A DNA stretch of 64,000 bases from Elusimicrobiota bacterium (GCA_027451985.1 DAIDHS010000014.1:1748-65747), one strand, 5' to 3'. Shown: positions 18,951 to 56,018, numbered from the stretch's first letter. Made by a program: numbers and translations. Notes: a model not told the origin generated them from the letters alone.

Positions 18951-19268
18951 CTACATGCTCATCATGACGCAGGCCGAGGAGCCGCCGCAGCTCGCGCCGC
19001 AGCGCCCGCCGCCCGCGACTTTCTCAAGCTCGCTGTCCGAGAGCTCGCCGCCCGCCTTAACCAGATCGGGCACCACGACCACCAAGTCCGCGCCGTTGCG
19101 CGCCACGGCCTTGATGTTGAAGCCTTGCGGAAGCTCCTTGCCGGAGACTTCTTTGACCGCCGCGCTGGGGTTTTTGAGCGCCAGCTCGCGGAACTTCGCG
19201 TCCGTCGAAGCCTTGCGCGAGAACGCTTCCAAGGCTTTTTTTTGCTCGTCTTGGGTCCAGGGTTTCAT
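18951..19268 (-). CDS. lanthipeptide precursor A1 with NHLP (nitrile hydratase leader peptide)-type leader
   Basis: 105 aa. The leader is MKPWTQDEQKKALEAF...DAKFRELALKNP...LVVVVPDLVKAGGELSDSELEKVAGG. The predicted core is G-RCGASCGGSSACVMMSM, with 3 Cys and 4 Ser. Confidence 0.8.
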   Translation of the reverse strand: MKPWTQDEQKKALEAFSRKASTDAKFRELALKNPSAAVKEVSGKELPQGFNIKAVARNGADLVVVVPDLVKAGGELSDSELEKVAGGGRCGASCGGSSACVMMSM

Positions 19269-19331: not shown

Positions 19332-19694
19332 TTAAACGCAGGCTCCACCCACTCCCGGCACGTACGTAGGCCCCGGAGGCACCGTGGACGAAACCAGGCA
19401 GACCTGGCTGATACCGCAGCTTCCCGCGCAGCGTCCTCCCGCGACCTTCTCGAGTTCGCTGTCCGAGAGCTCGCCGCCCGCCTTGACCAGGTCGGGAACC
19501 ACAAGCACCATGTCCGCGCCGTCCCTCGCCACCGCCGCGACCTTAAAGCCCGCCGGCAGATCCTTGCCGGAGACTTCCTTGACCGCCGCGGCCGGATTCT
19601 TGAGCGCCAACTCGCGGAATTTCGCGTCCGTCGAGGCCTTGCGTGCGAACGCCTCCAAAGCCTTTTTCTTTTCGTCCTGCGTCCAAGGTTTCAT
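19332..19694 (-). CDS. lanthipeptide precursor A2 with NHLP-type leader
   Basis: 120 aa. The leader is almost identical to A1 and ends ...SDSELEKVAGG. The predicted core is RCAGSCGISQVCLVSSTVPPGPTYVPGVGGACV, with 4 Cys and 6 Ser/Thr. The ATG overlaps the upstream gene's stop (ATGA). Confidence 0.8.
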   Translation of the reverse strand: MKPWTQDEKKKALEAFARKASTDAKFRELALKNPAAAVKEVSGKDLPAGFKVAAVARDGADMVLVVPDLVKAGGELSDSELEKVAGGRCAGSCGISQVCLVSSTVPPGPTYVPGVGGACV

Positions 19695-20468: not shown

Positions 20469-21497
20469 TTAGCGGCCAAAAAAAGCACGAGCCGCAATCG
20501 CATTACAGATCAGATACGCGACGGGATAGAGCGCGCGGGAAGCGGAGCGCACGCGCGCCGCAGTCCGGGACGAGCGCGCTTGGGCCGCGCGATGAACCAC
20601 GACGATTTCCACTATGGACAACGCGGAAAAGACGAAGCAAATGAGGAAGAACGCGTCGATGTAGGTCAGATACGGTAGGTGCGGCAGGCTGCCCGAGATG
20701 ACGAACAAGAAGGCCACCATCGTCAGCGTGGCGCTCAAGGCCACGGAGAACTGAGCCGCCACGTCAGTCTCATTGATCCACAAGGCGCAGTAGGACACGA
20801 TGACCATGATAAAGAGCGGCAGGAACACCTTCCATATATAGTAGCCGTAGCGGCGCTTGATGAGCATGTTAAAGTCGATTTCTGGGATGCTGCCGCCCTT
20901 GCCGCCCAGCACCGACTCCGCGGGCACGGCCTTCATGCCGAGCATCTTCCACTGCGCCAGAAGCGCCCAAGGCTGGCTATTGATGCCGGTCTGCCCCGGG
21001 TCGGGGATGGGATTGACCACGTCCCGCTCATCGAGGAACGGCTGGATGACCACGGGCAGGACCTGCTCGTCGAAGGGAAAACGGTGGAAGCTCATCTGCA
21101 TGGTGAGGTCGTCCTCGAAGTCCTCCCAGAAAACCACCGTGCCGTCGGGCTTGCGCCGGACGTTGGTGCCCAGCTTGAAGAGCCCGTTGACGGCGTTGGC
21201 CATGATGACGTTGGGCGTCCAGATTTTAGCCGGATCGCAGAGCCGATCTTTGTCCTTGGGGCCGCGCGGAACGTACTTGAGTCGAGGATCCTTCCACTGC
21301 TCATAGAGGTATCCCCGGATGCGGAAGGTCTGCGCGACCTCGTCGACGCCCACCAAGTCGGTCACGTAGACGCCTACTTTGACAGGCACGCGCCCGCCGC
21401 TGGACGGCGGAGGAGGAGGAATTTGACGGGCCGAAGCCCGAAGCCCCGTGGACAGAAGAGGAATCAGGAGCGTAACGGCAATTGCGGTGCGCTTCAT
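20469..21497 (-). CDS. prokaryotic pentameric (Cys-loop family) ligand-gated ion channel homologue
   Basis: 342 aa. Signal peptide, ~200 aa beta-rich extracellular domain, then pre-M1/M1 RRYGYYIWKVFLPLFIMVIVSYCALWI (GLIC/ELIC-like R-x-Y..LP..F....S..A.W), M2 SVALSATLTMVAFLFVISGSLP, M3 and a short M4. Confidence 0.7.
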   Translation of the reverse strand: MKRTAIAVTLLIPLLSTGLRASARQIPPPPPSSGGRVPVKVGVYVTDLVGVDEVAQTFRIRGYLYEQWKDPRLKYVPRGPKDKDRLCDPAKIWTPNVIMANAVNGLFKLGTNVRRKPDGTVVFWEDFEDDLTMQMSFHRFPFDEQVLPVVIQPFLDERDVVNPIPDPGQTGINSQPWALLAQWKMLGMKAVPAESVLGGKGGSIPEIDFNMLIKRRYGYYIWKVFLPLFIMVIVSYCALWINETDVAAQFSVALSATLTMVAFLFVISGSLPHLPYLTYIDAFFLICFVFSALSIVEIVVVHRAAQARSSRTAARVRSASRALYPVAYLICNAIAARAFFGR

Positions 21498-22447: not shown

Positions 22448-23890
22448 TCAATAGGTCGGCACGCTCGGATCAATGCGTTCTGACCAAGCGGCGATGCCCC
22501 CGGCCACGTTGACCGCATTTTTAAATCCCGCGCCGCGCAGAAACTCAACCGCCTTGGCGGAGCGCCCGCCCATCTTGCAGTGCACCAGGATGTCGGCCGC
22601 AGAGTCGAGCTCATGCAGGCGCTCGGGCAGCTGGCCCAGGGGAATGAGCGTTGAGCCAGGCAGGCGGCAGATGTCGTACTCCTCCTGCTCGCGCACATCG
22701 AGGATGAATATGTCGTCCTTGCGGTCCATGCGAGCCTTCAGGTCCTCGACGCTGATTTCGGGAATCCCGGCCGCGGTAGCTTTTTTCTCCTCGCCGCGGA
22801 TGCTGCAGAACTCCTCGTAGTCGATGAGCGTTTTGATGCTGGGCTTGGCCCCGCACACGGGGCAGTCGGGATCTTTGCGCAGCGCCAGTTTTCGCCAGCC
22901 CATCTTCAAGGCGTCGAAAAGCACAAGTTGGCCGATCAATGGTTCGCCAATGCCCACGATAAGCTTGATGGTCTCGGCGGCCTGCAAGGCTCCAACCACG
23001 CCCGGCAAAACGCCCAGCACGCCTCCTTCGGCGCACGACGGCACCAAGCCCGGCGGAGGCGGCTCAGAGTAGACGCAGCGGTAGCACGGCCCGCGCTCGG
23101 CCCAGAACACCGAGACCTGGCCGTCGAAGCGGAAGATGCTGCCGTAAACGTTGGGCTTGCCCAGAAGGACGCAGGCGTCGTTGACCAGGTAGCGCGTGGG
23201 GAAGTTGTCCGTGCCGTCCACCACGATGTCGTAACCCTTAATGATGTCCAAGGCGTTGTGCGAGGATAGCCTGACTTCGTGGGTTTGAATCTTGATGGTC
23301 GGGTTGACGTCCAGAAGCCGGGCGCGCGCTGATTCCAGCTTGGGCTTTCCCACCGCATCGGTGGAGTGGATGATTTGCCGCTGCAAGTTGGAAAGCTCGA
23401 CCACGTCGAAATCCACGATACCGATCGTGCCCACCCCGGCCGCGGCCAAGTACAGGCTCAGGGGCGAGCCCAGTCCGCCCGCGCCAATCGTCAAGACCCT
23501 GGCTTCCTTGAGTTTTTTCTGTCCGGCCATACCCACCTCGGGCATGATGAGATGGCGGCTGTAGCGTTTGATTTCCTCGGCGCTAAACGTCGTCTCCTCT
23601 TTAGCCGGGGCCGCGTTGCCGCCCGCAATCGAAGGCACAATGAGCAGAACGTCACCGTCCTTGACCGGAGTTTGTGCGCCCTGCAGGTGCCGGATGTCCG
23701 CGTCGTTTAGGAACACATTGACGAAATGGCGCAGCTTGCCGTCGTCGCCGATCAAGTGTTTTTTAAGCGCGGCGTATCTGCTCGTCAAGGCGTCCAATAC
23801 GGCCCCCACGGTCGCCCCCTCCAGCTCCACCACCTCTTTTTTCTCGACGTACTGCCGCAAAGCCGTCGGCACGTGCACTCTAACCTTCAT
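22448..23890 (-). CDS. fused ThiS/MoaD-like sulfur-carrier domain - MoeB/ThiF (E1-like adenylyltransferase) - rhodanese (MoeZ-like)
   Basis: 480 aa from MKVRVHV. The N-terminal ubiquitin-like beta-grasp ends ...VLLIVPSIAGG. The E1 nucleotide-binding segment is VLTIGAGGLGSPLSLYLAAAGVG, with CxxC pairs. The C-terminal rhodanese has the active-site Cys in CKMGGRS. Confidence 0.8.
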   Translation of the reverse strand: MKVRVHVPTALRQYVEKKEVVELEGATVGAVLDALTSRYAALKKHLIGDDGKLRHFVNVFLNDADIRHLQGAQTPVKDGDVLLIVPSIAGGNAAPAKEETTFSAEEIKRYSRHLIMPEVGMAGQKKLKEARVLTIGAGGLGSPLSLYLAAAGVGTIGIVDFDVVELSNLQRQIIHSTDAVGKPKLESARARLLDVNPTIKIQTHEVRLSSHNALDIIKGYDIVVDGTDNFPTRYLVNDACVLLGKPNVYGSIFRFDGQVSVFWAERGPCYRCVYSEPPPPGLVPSCAEGGVLGVLPGVVGALQAAETIKLIVGIGEPLIGQLVLFDALKMGWRKLALRKDPDCPVCGAKPSIKTLIDYEEFCSIRGEEKKATAAGIPEISVEDLKARMDRKDDIFILDVREQEEYDICRLPGSTLIPLGQLPERLHELDSAADILVHCKMGGRSAKAVEFLRGAGFKNAVNVAGGIAAWSERIDPSVPTY

Positions 23891-24333
23891 CAAAGAACCT
23901 CCGTTCTCCCCTCGATAAAGCTGCGTCCGTCCTCGGATCGCCGCCACACCCGCAAGTCCCCTGCGCCTGCCGCCGTCATCGCGACGATCAAGTAGGCGTA
24001 GGCGGGCCAAGCGCGCTGCAAATCAAAAGGCGACGGCCACGCAGGGGCGTCGGGATGTGAGTGGTAAATGCCCACGATGCCGCGGGGTTGACCCGAAAAT
24101 TCCTTCTCGACCGCGGCCCAGGCCTGCGGGTCCATCTCGTAGCGATCGTTTTTTCTTTGCGGGTTGGCCATATTTTTGAGCGGCCGAGCGTCCAGGACGC
24201 GCACGTCCGATTCGGGATCGCCGAAGCCGGAGGAGATGTCGCCGATTAAAAGCCCGCAGCCTTCCTCGGGATAAGTTTCGCGCACGTGATCTTGAATGGC
24301 CTTCATGACCGCGTTCGGAATAAAGAGCGTCAC
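23890..24333 (-). CDS. JAMM/MPN+ metalloprotease (Mec+-like)
   Basis: JAMM motif EEGCGLL ... HSHPDAPAWPSPFD (E-x(n)-HxH-x7-S-x2-D). Start is either the GTG overlapping the cysM TGA (GTGA, 147 aa) or the ATG at 24306 (138 aa). Confidence 0.75.
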   Translation of the reverse strand: MTLFIPNAVMKAIQDHVRETYPEEGCGLLIGDISSGFGDPESDVRVLDARPLKNMANPQRKNDRYEMDPQAWAAVEKEFSGQPRGIVGIYHSHPDAPAWPSPFDLQRAWPAYAYLIVAMTAAGAGDLRVWRRSEDGRSFIEGRTEVL

Positions 24334-25268
24334 TTGGCCGTCTCCCAGAAACGCTCGCTCAAGTAGCGCTCGCCGCCGTCCGGCAGAACCGTAGCCAAGA
24401 CCGCGTCCCGACCGTCCCGAAAAAGTTCTTGCCCGACCGCAAAGCACGCGGCTAGATTCGCACCACCCGAAATGCCGATGAGCACGCCCTCGTCTTTCGC
24501 CGCGCGCAGGACCCACCCGTAGGCGTCCTCCGTTGCAATCTCCAGGTTCCGATCCGCCAAGCGCGGGTCGTAGATGCCGGGGACAATGGCGCTGTCCATG
24601 TGCTTCAAGCCCTCCAAACCGTGCAGGGGCGAGTCGGGCTGGACCGAAATCAGCTTCACGCCGGGGTTCAATTCTTTGAGCTTGGTCCCGATGCCGCGGA
24701 ACGTGCCGCTTGTGCCCAAACCCGCGACGAAGTGCGTGACGCGGCCCTGGGTCTGCTCCCAAATTTCCGGGCCCGTGGTTTCGTAGTGCGCCTTCCAATT
24801 CTCGGGGTTGTTGTACTGGTCGGGATAGAAATAAAGCTCTGGATTTTCCGCGTTGAGCTCGCGCGCCTTGCGGATGGCGCCGTCGGGGCCTTCAAGCGGA
24901 TCGGTCAGCACAAGCTCCGCCCCGTAAGCCAGCAGGATTTTCTTTCGCTCCGCGTTGATGTTGCCGGGCACGGCCAGACGAACCCTGTAGCCCAGCTTCG
25001 CGCCCATCCAGGCATACGCGATGCCCGTGTTGCCCGAGGTGGCGTCCATGATGATCTTGCCGGGCGTCAAGAGCCCCGCGCGCTCGGCGGCGCGCAACAT
25101 CCCAAGAGCCGCGCGGTCCTTGATCGAGCCGCCGGGGTTGCGCCACTCCGCCTTGGCGGCGATTTGAACACGTCCCCCAAATGCGCGCGCGAGCTTCGGG
25201 AAAGAAATGAGCGGGGTGTTCCCGACCCCCAAATCTTGCTTCGGAACCGGACTGGCCTGCGCGCGCAT
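24330..25268 (-). CDS. cysM: cysteine synthase B-like (CysM; PLP-dependent, sulfur-carrier-dependent type)
   Basis: 312 aa. The PLP-lysine region is NPGGSIKDRAALGML, followed by DATSGNTGIAYA and GTSGTFRGIG, as in CysK/CysM. Confidence 0.85.
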   Translation of the reverse strand: MRAQASPVPKQDLGVGNTPLISFPKLARAFGGRVQIAAKAEWRNPGGSIKDRAALGMLRAAERAGLLTPGKIIMDATSGNTGIAYAWMGAKLGYRVRLAVPGNINAERKKILLAYGAELVLTDPLEGPDGAIRKARELNAENPELYFYPDQYNNPENWKAHYETTGPEIWEQTQGRVTHFVAGLGTSGTFRGIGTKLKELNPGVKLISVQPDSPLHGLEGLKHMDSAIVPGIYDPRLADRNLEIATEDAYGWVLRAAKDEGVLIGISGGANLAACFAVGQELFRDGRDAVLATVLPDGGERYLSERFWETAK

Positions 25269-25319
25269 CTGATTATTATACGTGTTATGTCTTGCCTCAA
25301 ACTGTGTGGGAGAGCCGAA

Positions 25320-26774
25320 TCAGAAGGCTAATTGCGAGCGCATCCCGATGATGCGTTCAATGGGGCGATTGCCCGTGCCATTGCCGCCTGCGAACCAAGT
25401 TTGCTCGTAGTCCACAGCTAACCGCACGAAATTATTCAAATACCAATTCAGCGCGAGAGTATAGGCTGTCGCCCGCGATGCGGAAACAGAGGAATCGGCG
25501 AAAGTCGGGAAAGTTTTCGGATCGAGCTGCAGCTGGTGAAGCCGCGCGGCTACCTCCCAGGCCCCCCAAGTTCCCGCCCGGGGGTCGAACACCTTTTTTG
25601 GAATGACACCCTCGTAAGAGGCATCCTCGCCGGTGAGCACCCAAGATGCCGCGCTCTGCCAAGCGCGATTGGTCAGGCGAGCTCGTGCGTTGCCCGCCTG
25701 AGCCACCTGGCTGGTTTGCGCATACTCCGCATAGACAGCGACGGGGCCTAAATAATAGGAAGCCTGCGGGACCAGATGAATTTGCTCGCCGCTGAAGGCC
25801 ACGGTGTTCCTGTAACTCATAAACTGTTCTTGGCCTATCGCGGTTCTAAAAACCGGAACCCCCGGATTCGAGGCGGCATAGCTGCCCGCGAACCCGAAAC
25901 CCAAGTTCTCAAGCTTGCGGCGGCCGGAATTCTTGAGCGGCTGAAAAAAAGTCCGCGCGACCAATTCCTTGGCATTGCCGGAGGGGCTGTCGATCGCATG
26001 AGCGGCGTCGGCCGTTCCGTTGGTGAAGGAAGCTTGATATGTGAAAGCATCGCCAAGAAGTCCGCCGAAAAACTCCACTCCAGTATCACGCGACGGCATC
26101 AGATCCGCTGTCAAGCCCCGCTCCATGAACGTCAAGTCGCTGGCGGCGCGCAGCCGCTCCAGACCCAGAGGAGGCTTGAACTTCCCGATTCGCAGATTCG
26201 CGAACGACCATGGACGGACGTCCAGGAACGAATCGTCAATTCCGACGGTATTTAAGCCGAAATCCGGCTGAAAAAAGAAATCATAAAACCCGGACACATT
26301 GCCCGCCAAGACAGGGCGCGCGCGCCTCAAAAAAAAGCCGCTCGTTACAGGCGCCTGCCCAGAAGCATTGACTGCGGGGGCATAAGCCGCGGGATTGGAT
26401 CCGCTTCCCGTGTAGAAACGGCCGTCAGTCTGGATAATGCCTTGAAATTGGATTTTAAAATTCCCGTCCGGCGACCTCAAAGAGAAACCAGACAGTCCGG
26501 CAAAAGATTCGCCCGCAGGAGGATTCTCGGGCCCGATGGCCATGCGCGGCCGGCTAAATGCCCCCGCCGGCTCGTGCGCCCCCACAAGCTGCAGTTCCCT
26601 GCGCATGGACTCCACTTGGCTCTCCAGCAGATCCACGCGCTGCCCCAAGGTTCTCGTGGACACGGAAATCGCGGGCACAGAATATTCTTCGGCACGAAGA
26701 GGCCGGGCCTGCGCGCACAGAAGAGCGGCAGATATCCCCGCGAAGATTAGAATATTTATTTTTATCGCCTTCAT
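25320..26774 (-). CDS. outer-membrane porin, phosphate-selective porin O/P-like
   Basis: 484 aa with signal peptide. An N-terminal coiled-coil (LESQVESMRRELQL) is followed by alternating-hydrophobic beta-strands, and the C-terminus ends ...RSQLAF. Confidence 0.55.
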   Translation of the reverse strand: MKAIKINILIFAGISAALLCAQARPLRAEEYSVPAISVSTRTLGQRVDLLESQVESMRRELQLVGAHEPAGAFSRPRMAIGPENPPAGESFAGLSGFSLRSPDGNFKIQFQGIIQTDGRFYTGSGSNPAAYAPAVNASGQAPVTSGFFLRRARPVLAGNVSGFYDFFFQPDFGLNTVGIDDSFLDVRPWSFANLRIGKFKPPLGLERLRAASDLTFMERGLTADLMPSRDTGVEFFGGLLGDAFTYQASFTNGTADAAHAIDSPSGNAKELVARTFFQPLKNSGRRKLENLGFGFAGSYAASNPGVPVFRTAIGQEQFMSYRNTVAFSGEQIHLVPQASYYLGPVAVYAEYAQTSQVAQAGNARARLTNRAWQSAASWVLTGEDASYEGVIPKKVFDPRAGTWGAWEVAARLHQLQLDPKTFPTFADSSVSASRATAYTLALNWYLNNFVRLAVDYEQTWFAGGNGTGNRPIERIIGMRSQLAF

Positions 26775-53846: not shown

Positions 53847-54554
53847 TTAAAGAAATTGAGCGACGAGTTTTTGGAATGCCTTGTCTAAAGGCATCAATCT
53901 CTCTTTAATCTTTTTGCTGGTATAGCCAGTCTTGCGGTAGGCTGGGATGAAGCTTTCCTTAAAATCCCCATCGTCAGTAGCAAGGTCAATCAGAAATCCA
54001 TTTTGGCTAATGGGGGCAATGCCAAAAAGGAGTGCTTTCTCCGACTGCAAGCGCAAAAATTTATTGTCGCGCAAATCTGCATGATTTTTATGCAACCAAG
54101 TGTCTTTCCAATCACAAAAAACTTCTACCTGTCTTTCACCCTTACTTCCCTTAATGACAATGTCTGGCTGGGTCGATATTTTTCTAGGAGTCAAGAATTC
54201 TCTGAATCGGTCATGTCCATGCAATATGGCTACTCCACCTTTATTTTCTATGGCCCATATCACCGCATCTTCAATGAGCCAACCAAGAACCAGGTCGACT
54301 GCATACTCGTGAGGCTTTCGCGAATCCTTAAGCCATCCAAGGTTACACTTTTGTTCGAAATACTCAAAAACGGCATCGGACAAGCTTTTCCCAAGAACTT
54401 CCTGAAAAGCAATTTTTTTGGAAATTTCGGTTTCCGGGAAACGATCGTTTTTATATTTATTCAAGACCTGTTTAAAGTCCAAACCCAGTGCGCTTATTGA
54501 AATCAGGCATGAATCCACTTTCCCTTGGTAAGTTTCACTTAACGAATGGCTCAT
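53847..54554 (-). CDS. putative type II restriction endonuclease (PD-(D/E)xK-like)
   Basis: 235 aa, low GC, directly downstream of the C-protein gene. Candidate motif QPDIVIKGSKGERQVEVFCDWK (PD...E...DxK). No family recognised. Confidence 0.4.
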   Translation of the reverse strand: MSHSLSETYQGKVDSCLISISALGLDFKQVLNKYKNDRFPETEISKKIAFQEVLGKSLSDAVFEYFEQKCNLGWLKDSRKPHEYAVDLVLGWLIEDAVIWAIENKGGVAILHGHDRFREFLTPRKISTQPDIVIKGSKGERQVEVFCDWKDTWLHKNHADLRDNKFLRLQSEKALLFGIAPISQNGFLIDLATDDGDFKESFIPAYRKTGYTSKKIKERLMPLDKAFQKLVAQFL

Positions 54555-54577
54555 GAATGCCTCGCAGTTTAAGAGTC

Positions 54578-54784
54578 TTAGAAAAATGTTCGAACCGTAG
54601 TTTTCAGCGCCTTTGCCAACCGAAGCATGGTTTTAAGCGAAATGTTGCGCCGACCACGCTCCACCAAGCTTATGTAGGTCCGATGAAGGCCGGCTAATTC
54701 GGCAAGACGCTCCTGAGAAACGCCCCGCCCCCTACGAAGGGCACGAAGTTTTTTCCCGAACCGAGCAAGATCCGTGTTTGACAT
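54578..54784 (-). CDS. R-M controller (C) protein, XRE-type helix-turn-helix
   Basis: 68 aa from MSNTDLARFGKKLRALRRGRGVSQERLAELAGLHRTYISLVERGRRNISLKTMLRLAKAL. The HTH is canonical and the gene lies upstream of the REase. Confidence 0.6.
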   Translation of the reverse strand: MSNTDLARFGKKLRALRRGRGVSQERLAELAGLHRTYISLVERGRRNISLKTMLRLAKALKTTVRTFF

Positions 54785-54807
54785 TATTGTTGATGGAACC
54801 AAATGGC

Positions 54808-54833
54808 AGACTAACAGTCTACAGACTATGAGC
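54808..54833 (-). promoter_or_regulatory. C-box operator (GACT-N3-AGTC type) upstream of C gene
   Basis: AGACTaacAGTCT followed 2 bp later by AGACTatgAGC. This matches the tandem GACT-N3-AGTC C-box architecture of C.PvuII-like systems. Confidence 0.5.
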
Positions 54834-54884
54834 AACGTTACGGTGGTGAAAAAGCATCGTTCAAGTTGCTATACTAGGCTAAAC

Positions 54885-56018
54885 ATGAAGCCCCTCAGGT
54901 GCGTCGATCTATTCTCAGGCGCGGGTGGTTTTTCTGCCGGCCTGCAGAAAGAAGGATTTAGCACGCTTTTCGCCGTTGAGATCGATTTAGACGCGTGCGC
55001 TACCTTCAAAGCCAATCACCCCAATGCAGATTTATTCAGAGACAACATTGCCAAACTGACTACGACGAATCTGCTGAAGCGACTTAAAGTTAAACCCGGA
55101 GATCTAGAACTTTTGGTTGGTGGTCCCCCATGTCAAGGTTTTAGCACGGTGGGCAACAAAAACATGGACGATCCACGCAACCAGTTATTCCGCCATTACT
55201 TCAGAATTGTCGAAAAGCTTCGGCCGCAATTCGTCATTTTTGAAAACGTGACGGGGTTTAAACGCCTCTATGATGGCCGGGCTTTCGAATCGGTGTGCTC
55301 GGAGTTCCAAAGGCTCGATTATGCCGTAGAAGCAAGGATCCTCAACGCCGCCCACTACGGAGTTCCCCAACTAAGAGAACGGACCATCGTCGTTGGCCAT
55401 GAAAAGGGCACCCGATTTTCCTGGCCTTCACACACCCACTCCGTGGAAGAAGACGAACTGTTGTTGGCGACGGGACACCTAAAAAAAGCCGTCACGCTTG
55501 GTGAAGCTCTTGGAGATTTACCTCAGATTGCCGCCGGGGAAACGTCTCAGCATTACGCCTGCGCCCCTCAAAACGATTATCAGCGAGCACGTCGCAAAAA
55601 GTTGTCAAAACTAACCGAGCACGAAGCCCCAAAACACGGCCCCAAGCTTCTCGAAGTCATCAAGCACGTTCCCGTTGGAGGGTGCGTCCTTGACGTCCCG
55701 AAACATTTAAGGCCCCGCGGATATTTCAACAACACCTACGCACGCCTCTGGTGGGACAAGCCCTCCACGACAATCACTCGCAATTTTGGCACGCCATCGT
55801 CTAGCCGATGCATTCACCCCCTGCTAGATCGTGGATTAACGACGCGGGAAGGTGCGCGCCTACAAAGCTTTGACGACGATTTCCAATTTACCGGCTCGAA
55901 CTCGTCCAAGAATCTTCAAATTGGGAATGCCGTTCCTCCTCTGTTGGCCGCAGCTCTCGGAAGAGCCGTAAAAGAATCACTGTCTTTGCCTAGCGCCCTC
56001 GCCGCAATTCCGAGGTAA
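54885..56018 (+). CDS. DNA (cytosine-5)-methyltransferase
   Basis: Start at MKPLRCVDLFSGAGGFSAGL (motif I). Motif IV is GGPPCQGFS and motif VI is ENV (FVIFENVTGF). The C-terminus has the target-recognition region and motif X. Confidence 0.9.
   Translation: MKPLRCVDLFSGAGGFSAGLQKEGFSTLFAVEIDLDACATFKANHPNADLFRDNIAKLTTTNLLKRLKVKPGDLELLVGGPPCQGFSTVGNKNMDDPRNQLFRHYFRIVEKLRPQFVIFENVTGFKRLYDGRAFESVCSEFQRLDYAVEARILNAAHYGVPQLRERTIVVGHEKGTRFSWPSHTHSVEEDELLLATGHLKKAVTLGEALGDLPQIAAGETSQHYACAPQNDYQRARRKKLSKLTEHEAPKHGPKLLEVIKHVPVGGCVLDVPKHLRPRGYFNNTYARLWWDKPSTTITRNFGTPSSSRCIHPLLDRGLTTREGARLQSFDDDFQFTGSNSSKNLQIGNAVPPLLAAALGRAVKESLSLPSALAAIPR

Follow-up and report, generated by a model that had tools for sequence, protein, structure and literature searches.

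A cysM-JAB operon with a CysO-like sulfur carrier fused to a MoeZ/MoeB-type E1-rhodanese

Introduction

In Mycobacterium tuberculosis, CysO is thiocarboxylated by MoeZ, CysM joins it to O-phosphoserine, and Mec cleaves the resulting CysO-cysteine (PMC8280819, PMC3227635), the protein that sulfurates CysO being MoeZR (PMC3227635). Recent literature still terms this CysO/CysM/Mec pathway actinomycete-specific (PMC8280819, PMC9547175). A related gene set was defined earlier by Iyer, Burroughs & Aravind (2006), whose class 4c operon combines ThiS/MoaD, an E1-rhodanese, a JAB protease, and a cysteine synthase, and includes an example from the acidobacterium Solibacter usitatus (PMC1779556). The same authors proposed that JAB may cleave ThiS/MoaD domains fused to other proteins, freeing the C-terminus (PMC1779556). 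No experimental follow-up of class 4c was found in our literature search. Here we analyze a locus at 22448-25268 of a 64,000-nucleotide (nt) stretch of DNA from an Elusimicrobiota bacterium (GCA_027451985.1 DAIDHS010000014.1:1748-65747), the whole of which is called the window. The locus encodes a cysM-like enzyme, a JAB protease, and a 480-residue protein in which a CysO-like carrier domain is fused in frame to an E1-rhodanese. We read it as probably a cysteine operon of the CysO/CysM/Mec+/MoeZ type.

Sulfur carriers with sequence following their Gly-Gly are found in other pathways as well. In the methionine pathway of Wolinella, the carrier HcyS has a C-terminal extension that is trimmed by the JAMM protease HcyD. 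QbsE of thioquinolobactin and CxnE of chuangxinmycin synthesis have extensions after their Gly-Gly that the adjacent JAMM proteins QbsD and CxnF are proposed to remove (PMC5925218). MoaX, a MoaD-MoaE fusion of M. tuberculosis, requires cleavage at Gly82|Ser83 for activity, and its protease is unidentified (PMC4326299). In Haloferax, a JAMM enzyme removes ubiquitin-like (Ubl) modifiers from proteins (PMC4443979).

Results

Layout of the operon

An open reading frame (ORF) listing and direct reading of the DNA place three tightly packed minus-strand ORFs at 25268..22448. The genes, the domains of the third one, and the upstream region are as follows.

25268..24330, minus strand: cysM-like cysteine synthase dependent on pyridoxal phosphate (PLP), 312 residues; stop TGA at 24332-24330; PALP 4e-67
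24333..23890, minus strand: JAMM/JAB (Mec+-like) zinc metalloprotease, 147 residues; GTG start; Prok-JAB 3.5e-21
23890..22448, minus strand: 480-residue precursor, CysO-like carrier::MoeZ adenylation domain::rhodanese; ATG start; Pfam ThiS, ThiF, and Rhodanese
23890..23618, minus strand: CysO-type beta-grasp sulfur-carrier domain, residues 1-91; PDB sequence matches, AlphaFold2 (AF2) and Foldseek
23623-23618, minus strand: codons of Gly90-Gly91, where activation and cleavage (between G91 and N92) are predicted; AGG conservation and CysO alignment
23617..23591, minus strand: linker, residues 92-100, NAAPAKEET, predicted to be disordered; it would stay on the E1 fragment after cleavage
23590..22856, minus strand: MoeZ/MoeB/ThiF-type adenylation (E1-like) domain, residues ~101-345; ThiF 4e-84
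22753..22478, minus strand: rhodanese domain, residues 380-471, active-site Cys438 (HCKMGGR); Rhodanese 6e-19
25300..25272, minus strand: promoter-like site TTGAGG-17-AATAAT just 5' of the cysM ATG, a weak candidate from a consensus scan that gave 4 sites in the region against 1.2 expected; with it, the leader would be very short or absent

The initial annotation, made from the DNA sequence alone, had described an operon of cysM, a JAMM protease, and a carrier::MoeB::rhodanese gene, coupled through GTGA and TGATG overlaps. All three ORFs are present in that arrangement, and both overlaps are seen by direct reading. At the cysM/JAB junction, which reads aaGTGAcg, the GTG start and the TGA stop overlap in GTGA (24333-24330). 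The JAB/fusion junction reads tTGATGaag (TGATG, 23892-23888), with one base common to the stop and the ATG. A Shine-Dalgarno GGAGG lies 7 nt 5' of the fusion ATG, and GGGAGA lies ~8 nt 5' of the JAB GTG. Homologs back the GTG start, as their tblastn matches reach to query residues 1-5; translation could instead begin at an ATG nine codons further on. A terminator scan 3' of the operon gave nothing convincing.

The third gene encodes a CysO-like carrier joined to an E1-rhodanese

Pfam assigns ThiS to residues 5-91 (3.5e-14), ThiF to residues 110-345, and Rhodanese to residues 380-471 of the 480-residue protein, all well above gathering scores. The first domain ends in ...VPSIAGG at G90-G91, after which the frame continues into NAAPAKEETTFSAEEIKRYSRH. 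Compared with all PDB chains, residues 1-91 match CysO of Amycolatopsis orientalis best (4n6e_B, from the BexX/CysO complex; 2e-19), followed by M. tuberculosis CysO (3dwg_C, 1.8e-16). Both structures align from residue 1 to their last, with G90-G91 falling on their C-terminal Gly-Gly (PSIAGG versus PAVAGG).

Modeling gives a similar picture. The AF2 model of the whole protein has a mean predicted local distance difference test score (pLDDT) of 85 and a confident N-terminal beta-grasp, with strands at 2-6, 20-24, 57-61, and 81-86 and helices at 9-14, 28-38, and 40-46. For residues 87-98, comprising the SIAGG tail and the linker, pLDDT falls below 50, which fits a segment that is exposed and flexible. 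When residues 1-91 are modeled alone, pLDDT is 92, and the top Foldseek matches of this model are again 4n6e_B (template modeling (TM) score 0.89/0.91, root-mean-square deviation (rmsd) 1.5 Å) and 3dwg_C (TM 0.87/0.86). The CysO matches overall span TM 0.86-0.91 and rmsd 1.5-2.1 Å, and SAMP1, Urm1, and MoaD come next. Among NCBIfam models, SAMP1 (65 bits, cutoff 60) and archaeal MoaD models score just over their cutoffs on residues 3-91. The ThiS/MoaD-like carrier ending in PSIAGG that the initial annotation had seen at the N-terminus of the E1-rhodanese is therefore upheld by Pfam, the PDB alignment, and the fold matches alike. The domain-boundary modeling it had called for yields a beta-grasp, and neither a different fold nor a buried Gly-Gly was seen as far as modeling tells.

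Residues 97-480 match the NCBIfam MoeB/MoeZ models at 529-550 bits. These scores of 529 and 550 bits fall under the equivalog cutoffs (PRK07878 MoeZ, 647; PRK07411 MoeB, 633), while the protein passes PRK08762 (487 bits, cutoff 449) and PRK05690 (317 bits, cutoff 266). Judged by these scores, the 480-residue protein is a member of the MoeZ/MoeB-rhodanese family and not a curated MoeZ equivalog. The model for UbaA, the E1 that activates SAMP, also stays below its cutoff, at 353 bits. In Foldseek, the E1 domain matches E. coli MoeB (1jw9_B) and ThiF (1zfn) with TM 0.94-0.95, and the E1 plus rhodanese unit as a whole matches Uba4 (6yub). An alignment of 40 fusions shows invariant GxGGLG (G136-G141), DGTDNF (D228), and zinc-type CxxC pairs at 269/272 and 343/346, along with invariant C438, G441, and R443 of the rhodanese. 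The MoeB and rhodanese parts named in the initial annotation are thus borne out by Pfam, NCBIfam, and the structural matches to MoeB, ThiF, and Uba4.

The fusion and its gene order are widely conserved

A search of the fusion protein against 5.8 billion proteins returned thousands of relatives, the best 120 clusters of which were examined. All three Pfam domains are present in 119 of them, at lengths of about 470-500 residues; the exception is a 394-residue entry without the Ubl domain (P0002). The closest relative (P0001), from a metagenome-assembled genome of Elusimicrobiota, is 90% identical and is named 'ubiquitin-like small modifier protein 1' by the Prokaryotic Genome Annotation Pipeline (PGAP). 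Other relatives are called 'MoeB' or 'sulfur-carrier protein adenylyltransferase/sulfurtransferase'. To name proteins of 480 residues 'MoeB' or 'ubiquitin-like small modifier protein 1' hides the fused carrier and is an annotation problem.

We then surveyed species in GTDB, taking one genome per species, and compared the window proteins by tblastn with the best 80 loci of at least 600 candidates. The full-length fusion is found in all 80. Their hosts are mainly Acidobacteriota and Gemmatimonadota, and also Elusimicrobia, Verrucomicrobia, Eisenbacteria, and others. Upstream of the fusion, 74 of the 80 have JAB on the same strand and 70 have a cysM homolog; the order cysM-JAB-fusion is kept in 70, and the three genes follow one another within 400-nt gaps in 62. 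A second carrier sequence was found in none of the 80 when their locus stretches, not whole genomes, were searched by tblastn. The window likewise contains no second carrier and no paralog of any of the three genes in its 64 kb. Gene structure, domain identities, conservation patterns, and linkage can all be read directly from these data. Far from being a one-off, the fusion represents a large, conserved family that soil bacteria commonly carry. Dozens of species share this domain architecture and gene order, which confirms that their association is far beyond chance.

A search of cluster representatives with the Ubl domain gave 5150 matches. Many representatives are truncated or frame-shifted metagenomic fragments, and therefore the matches do not give a clean ratio of fused to split forms. 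One cluster at 90% identity (P0101) mixes fused members of 482 residues, E1-only members of 383 residues, and Ubl-only members of 87 residues, which may reflect very recent gene fission or linker indel errors in long-read assemblies.

Conservation around the internal Gly-Gly fits a future C-terminus

An E1 adenylates only a free C-terminal carboxylate. As encoded, the carrier does not offer one, for its Gly-Gly is internal (G90-G91 of 480) and a free carboxylate is obtainable only via proteolysis. Cleavage of the fusion is thus chemically required if the domain is to act as a carrier.

The pattern of conservation agrees with this. The motif (I/V)(V/I)P(S/A)(I/V)AGG is conserved across 119 three-domain clusters of 120 aligned, and A89-G90-G91 is strictly invariant in the alignment of 40 fusions. 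The segment that leads from the Gly-Gly to RYSRH is 12-45 residues long in relatives, rich in Ala, Pro, and Thr, and otherwise unconserved. An invariant Gly-Gly followed by a hypervariable linker is the pattern expected from sequence if the Gly-Gly is a future C-terminus and the linker only a tether. Directly after the Gly-Gly, at P1', 175 proteins have Ala in 67 cases (38%), Ser in 59, and otherwise Val, Thr, Arg, or Asn. We considered self-cleavage through a nucleophile at this point and rejected it, since there is no conserved nucleophile and 38% of the proteins have Ala at P1'; a trans-acting protease is therefore indicated.

Standalone carriers retrieved with the Ubl domain are up to 67% identical to the fused domain. 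The Gly-Gly is the very end of the protein in only 7 of the 120 closest standalone-carrier clusters; 84 have 1-5 extra residues, and others have longer tails. C-terminal capping, and hence trimming after the Gly-Gly, seems standard in this clade. In Terriglobales, a split operon, PALP-JAB-ThiS(119 residues)-ThiF/Rhodanese, keeps the same order of genes and encodes the carrier separately. At another locus (L081) a split ThiS ending in GG+RS is followed 4 nt later by the E1 gene, with no JAB nearby. What follows the Gly-Gly appears to be evolutionarily free, as would be expected if it is removed: there may be nothing, a few residues, or an entire enzyme.

Some standalone CysO-like relatives have Cys-rich tails after the Gly-Gly (P0196, P0197, P0217-P0219, P0182, P0295, P0257, P0310, P0300, P0313, P0323). 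A 29-residue tail, SGxIDELxxFRIFELxSSITIRCCCPSxx, recurs in PALP-JAB-ThiS-E1 operons of Terriglobales (L083, 5001-5360; L084, 2275-2634). Other tails read CCCCCCL, ACACYCPCRMNA, and ...CCCPSCCCR, and one protein (P0171) ends in GGC, mimicking a CysO-Cys adduct.

The JAB protease has an intact JAMM motif

Pfam assigns Prok-JAB/JAB to the middle gene, and its closest PDB match by sequence is an MPN protein of Salinibacter ruber (2kcq, 2e-18). The JAMM motif is intact, with E23 in YPEEGCG and H91-S-H93-PDAPAWP-S101-PF-D104 as HxHx7Sx2D, and the JAMM (Mec+) protease of the initial annotation is confirmed to that extent. The NCBIfam desampylase model scores 74 bits, below its cutoff of 130. By analogy, we infer that JAB would cleave after the carrier Gly-Gly, be it in the precursor or in the cysteine adduct.

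The cysM-like enzyme belongs to a distinct subfamily

The first gene encodes a PLP enzyme of the cysteine synthase family, as had been claimed, judging from Pfam PALP and NCBIfam scores of the cysM and cysKM type. It stays under both the cysM and the cysK equivalog cutoffs, with TIGR01138 (cysM) at 335 bits against 394. It is 39% identical to M. tuberculosis CysM and 40% identical to E. coli CysM. The M. tuberculosis CysM sequence, checked against PDB 3dwi (100% identical), was aligned with the window protein and 68 operon-linked relatives. Equivalents of the PLP lysine and of the TSGNT loop (K51, S79, G80, N81, and T82) are kept in 68 of 68; at T78, the window protein has Thr and the relatives have either Thr or Ser.

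The initial annotation had suggested a check for active-site residues of the O-phosphoserine type. In M. tuberculosis CysM, Arg220 reportedly recognizes the phosphate of O-phosphoserine. The check fails in the strict sense, as the Arg220 position is Lys in the window protein and in 67 of the 68 relatives. This Lys, followed by an invariant His, is part of an invariant HGLEG(L/M)KHM, so that Lys-His stands where M. tuberculosis has Arg220-Asn. The position stays basic, and on sequence grounds the use of O-phosphoserine is neither supported nor excluded. With M. tuberculosis Arg220 a conserved Lys-His in the operon-linked proteins, the acceptor may be either O-phosphoserine or O-acetylserine. 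The window protein also stops ~14 residues before the end of M. tuberculosis CysM, at ...RYLSERFWETAK, and lacks the C-terminal tail with which the M. tuberculosis enzyme reaches into its active site. The operon-linked cysM proteins, from the window and from the 80 surveyed loci (L001-L080), form a subfamily with HGLEG(L/M)KHM and a short C-terminus ...RFWxE.

Neighboring features of the window

A gene of the Porin_O_P family (phosphate-selective, anion porins) is located at 25320-26774 on the minus strand and ends 51 nt upstream of cysM. As a part of the system it was rejected, with no homolog found by tblastn in the 80 best related loci. It is probably unrelated to the operon; a link via uptake of an anion such as thiosulfate or sulfate is conceivable.

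On the other side, also on the minus strand, 20469-21497 encodes a homolog of bacterial pentameric ligand-gated ion channels (Neur_chan_LBD 2.6e-20, Neur_chan_memb 1.8e-12) with a signal-peptide-like N-terminus. At 18951-19268 and 19332-19694, minus strand, there are two small ORFs of 105 and 120 residues, paralogs arranged in tandem. They share an N-terminal region MKPWTQDE.KKALEAF.RKASTDAKFRELALKNP.AAVKEVSGK that ends in ...SELEKVAGG and is followed by Cys/Gly/Ser-rich cores. Neither has a Pfam match at 1e-3, and in sequence they resemble leader peptides of ribosomal natural products of the NHLP/Nif11 type. G+C content is low at 1-2000 (0.51) and 54001-56000 (0.49) against a window average of about 0.64, and these segments may be foreign or mobile DNA or RNA genes.

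Discussion

We favor the reading that this is a cysteine operon of the CysO/CysM/Mec+/MoeZ type whose carrier is fused to the E1-rhodanese and released by JAB, with a probability of roughly 0.7. Overlapping stop and start codons show the three genes to be co-transcribed and translationally coupled. Going by homology and modeling, the 51.9-kDa precursor folds into a CysO-like beta-grasp, a flexible linker, the MoeZ adenylation domain, and the rhodanese. JAB would then hydrolyze Gly91-Asn92. Of the two products, residues 1-91 (9.9 kDa; 9,883 Da) would be the carrier, its Gly-Gly carboxylate now free, and residues 92-480 (42 kDa; 42,043 Da) the E1-rhodanese. As in MoeZR and CysO, the E1 would adenylate the carrier, and a persulfide on Cys438 of the rhodanese would turn it into the thiocarboxylate. 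The cysM-like PLP enzyme would, by homology, make aminoacrylate from O-phospho- or O-acetylserine; attack by the carrier thiocarboxylate and an S-to-N acyl shift would lead to carrier-Gly-Gly-Cys. The same JAB, acting like Mec+, would finally cut Gly-Gly|Cys, free the cysteine, and regenerate the carrier. Because the precursor bond and the product bond are alike, both being peptide bonds after the Gly-Gly, one protease can serve maturation and turnover with no new specificity needed. These catalytic steps are all predicted ones, and most of all the role of JAB as maturase.

Several points weigh against this assignment. Our literature search found no experiment on any member of the fused family. 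The presence of JAB does not discriminate between the hypotheses, since unfused operons of the Mec+ type carry JAB too. The cysM scores below cutoff, the Lys-His in place of Arg220-Asn, and the loss of the M. tuberculosis tail make the acceptor substrate, and even cysteine as the product, tentative assignments. Lastly, 4 of the 78 loci with sufficient flanks have the fusion without an adjacent JAB, and there the protease would have to be encoded elsewhere.

Those 4 loci, together with the split ThiS(GG+RS)-E1 pair of L081 that has no JAB nearby, would fit release of the carrier by a housekeeping or other protease, with JAB hydrolyzing only the carrier-cysteine adduct. The precedent of MoaX points the same way, as its protease is unidentified and some cleavage of it occurs even in E. 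coli (PMC4326299). Against this, JAB is adjacent in 74 of the 80 best loci, JAMM enzymes are the proposed trimmers of the Gly-Gly extensions of QbsE and CxnE (PMC5925218), and the bond is of the same type as in the Mec+ substrate (PMC8280819). The variable P1' residue also fits an enzyme that recognizes the Ubl body and the Gly-Gly, and we find release by a different protease improbable. Slightly less probable still is that the N-terminal Ubl domain is never released and serves the E1 for docking, regulation, or autoinhibition, while the true carrier is encoded elsewhere in the genome. An N-terminal Ubl domain is known on some ThiF proteins that co-occur with a separate ThiS, and a role unlike that of ThiS was suggested for it (Iyer et al. 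2006, PMC1779556). M. tuberculosis MoeZ serves several carriers (PMC3227635), and our search for a second carrier covered the loci and the window, not whole genomes. However, the domain is a close CysO homolog with the full activation tail, and a docking module would have no need of an invariant AGG. No other carrier turned up in the 80 best loci or the window, and split relatives encode the same domain as its own gene at the same operon position, with standalone versions reaching 67% identity.

A different function altogether could be considered from the names that automatic models give to these proteins. The best NCBIfam names are SAMP1 (65 bits, cutoff 60), UbaA (353 bits, below cutoff), and desampylase (74 bits, cutoff 130), and PGAP calls the close homolog P0001 a ubiquitin-like small modifier. 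CysO-type carriers have also been co-opted for thiosugar synthesis, as in the BexX/CysO complex (4n6e). The operon might then serve Ubl conjugation of the SAMP/TtuB kind, with JAB as deconjugase, or another thio-metabolite pathway (molybdenum cofactor (Moco), thiamin, a thio-cofactor, or a siderophore). Of the alternatives we give this one the least credence. The gene of the cysteine synthase family is tightly and widely linked (70 of the 80 best loci), the operon has no gene for MoaE, ThiG, an E2-like protein, or an AMP-ligase, and CysO structures are the best matches in both sequence and fold. Synthesis of Moco or thiamin as the primary function was rejected, there being no MoaE or ThiG nearby and CysO being the best match. 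The system may, on the side, take part in conjugation or serve other carriers.

The favored reading, maturation of a CysO-type precursor by JAB, can be extended to the whole clade, and here we are speculating and hold the idea to be doubtful. The carrier would always be made as a blocked pro-form, capped by 1-5 residues, by a Cys-rich tail, or by an entire E1, and one JAB would perform both maturation and product release. Since the encoded bond after the Gly-Gly mimics the carrier-Cys product, the activity of JAB, which is zinc-dependent and possibly redox-dependent, would gate activation of both carrier and E1. If such a design holds, it would be a bacterial counterpart of the ubiquitin-fusion precursors processed by deubiquitinases; carrier and E1 would be made strictly 1:1, and the flow of sulfur into cysteine would be under zymogen-like control.

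What is gained biochemically is incremental and not conceptual, because every step has a characterized precedent. Components, pathway, and operon class are already known, as is the idea of release by JAB, and the fusion itself is abundant in public databases, where it is poorly annotated by automatic means. No description or test of a CysO::MoeZ or Ubl::E1-rhodanese fusion came up in our literature search; the likely sources were not all covered, and an earlier mention is possible. Acidobacteriota, Gemmatimonadota, Elusimicrobia, Verrucomicrobia, and other soil lineages commonly carry homologous operons, mostly with the carrier fused. The distinct, conserved Lys-His signature of the cysM partner is a useful point of the family. 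If JAB does mature the precursor, the pair would be a simple natural two-protein system for studying how a JAMM enzyme recognizes a Ubl domain and cuts after Gly-Gly, and would offer a clean parallel in bacteria to how ubiquitin fusion precursors are processed.

Among known systems, the closest is Mec+-CysO-CysM with MoeZ of M. tuberculosis, which has the same four functions: a beta-grasp carrier ending in Gly-Gly, an E1 with rhodanese, a JAMM protease, and a PLP enzyme of the CysM family. It differs in that cysO is a separate gene and moeZ lies elsewhere, whereas in the window the carrier is fused in frame to the E1 inside the operon. The gene order is mec-cysO-cysM there and cysM-JAB-fusion here, and the window CysM has Lys-His for Arg220 and no C-terminal tail of the M. 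tuberculosis kind. The host is not an actinobacterium, the closest relative being from Elusimicrobiota at 90% identity. The match to this pathway that had been claimed in the initial annotation, with the carrier moved into the E1 protein, holds for the homology of every part; that the enzyme is of the O-phosphoserine type is not established, given the Lys-His at Arg220.

The gene content of class 4c is present in full, its four functions being carried by three overlapping genes. The 2006 text, however, has no carrier::E1 fusion in that class and mentions only a distinct Ubl domain on some ThiF proteins of thiamin operons (PMC1779556). SAMP1/UbaA/HvJAMM1 of Haloferax and the eukaryotic Urm1/Uba4 share the Ubl and E1(+rhodanese) folds. 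In contrast to the window system, they conjugate the Ubl protein to lysines, serve tRNA thiolation and Moco synthesis, and have no cysteine synthase partner. We know of no natural Ubl-E1 fusion in either the SAMP1/UbaA or the Urm1/Uba4 system.

MoaX resembles the window protein in being a sulfur carrier with an internal Gly-Gly that is fused to a partner enzyme and cut after the second Gly. Its partner, however, is the acceptor enzyme MoaE and not an E1, its pathway is that of Moco, and its protease is not encoded next door. QbsE, CxnE, and HcyS are likewise precursor carriers with residues after the Gly-Gly, and an adjacent JAMM protein is proposed or shown to expose it before activation of the MoeZ type. 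Their extensions are 1-10 residues without known function, whereas the 'extension' in the window is an enzyme of 389 residues, and cleavage would therefore yield two active proteins.

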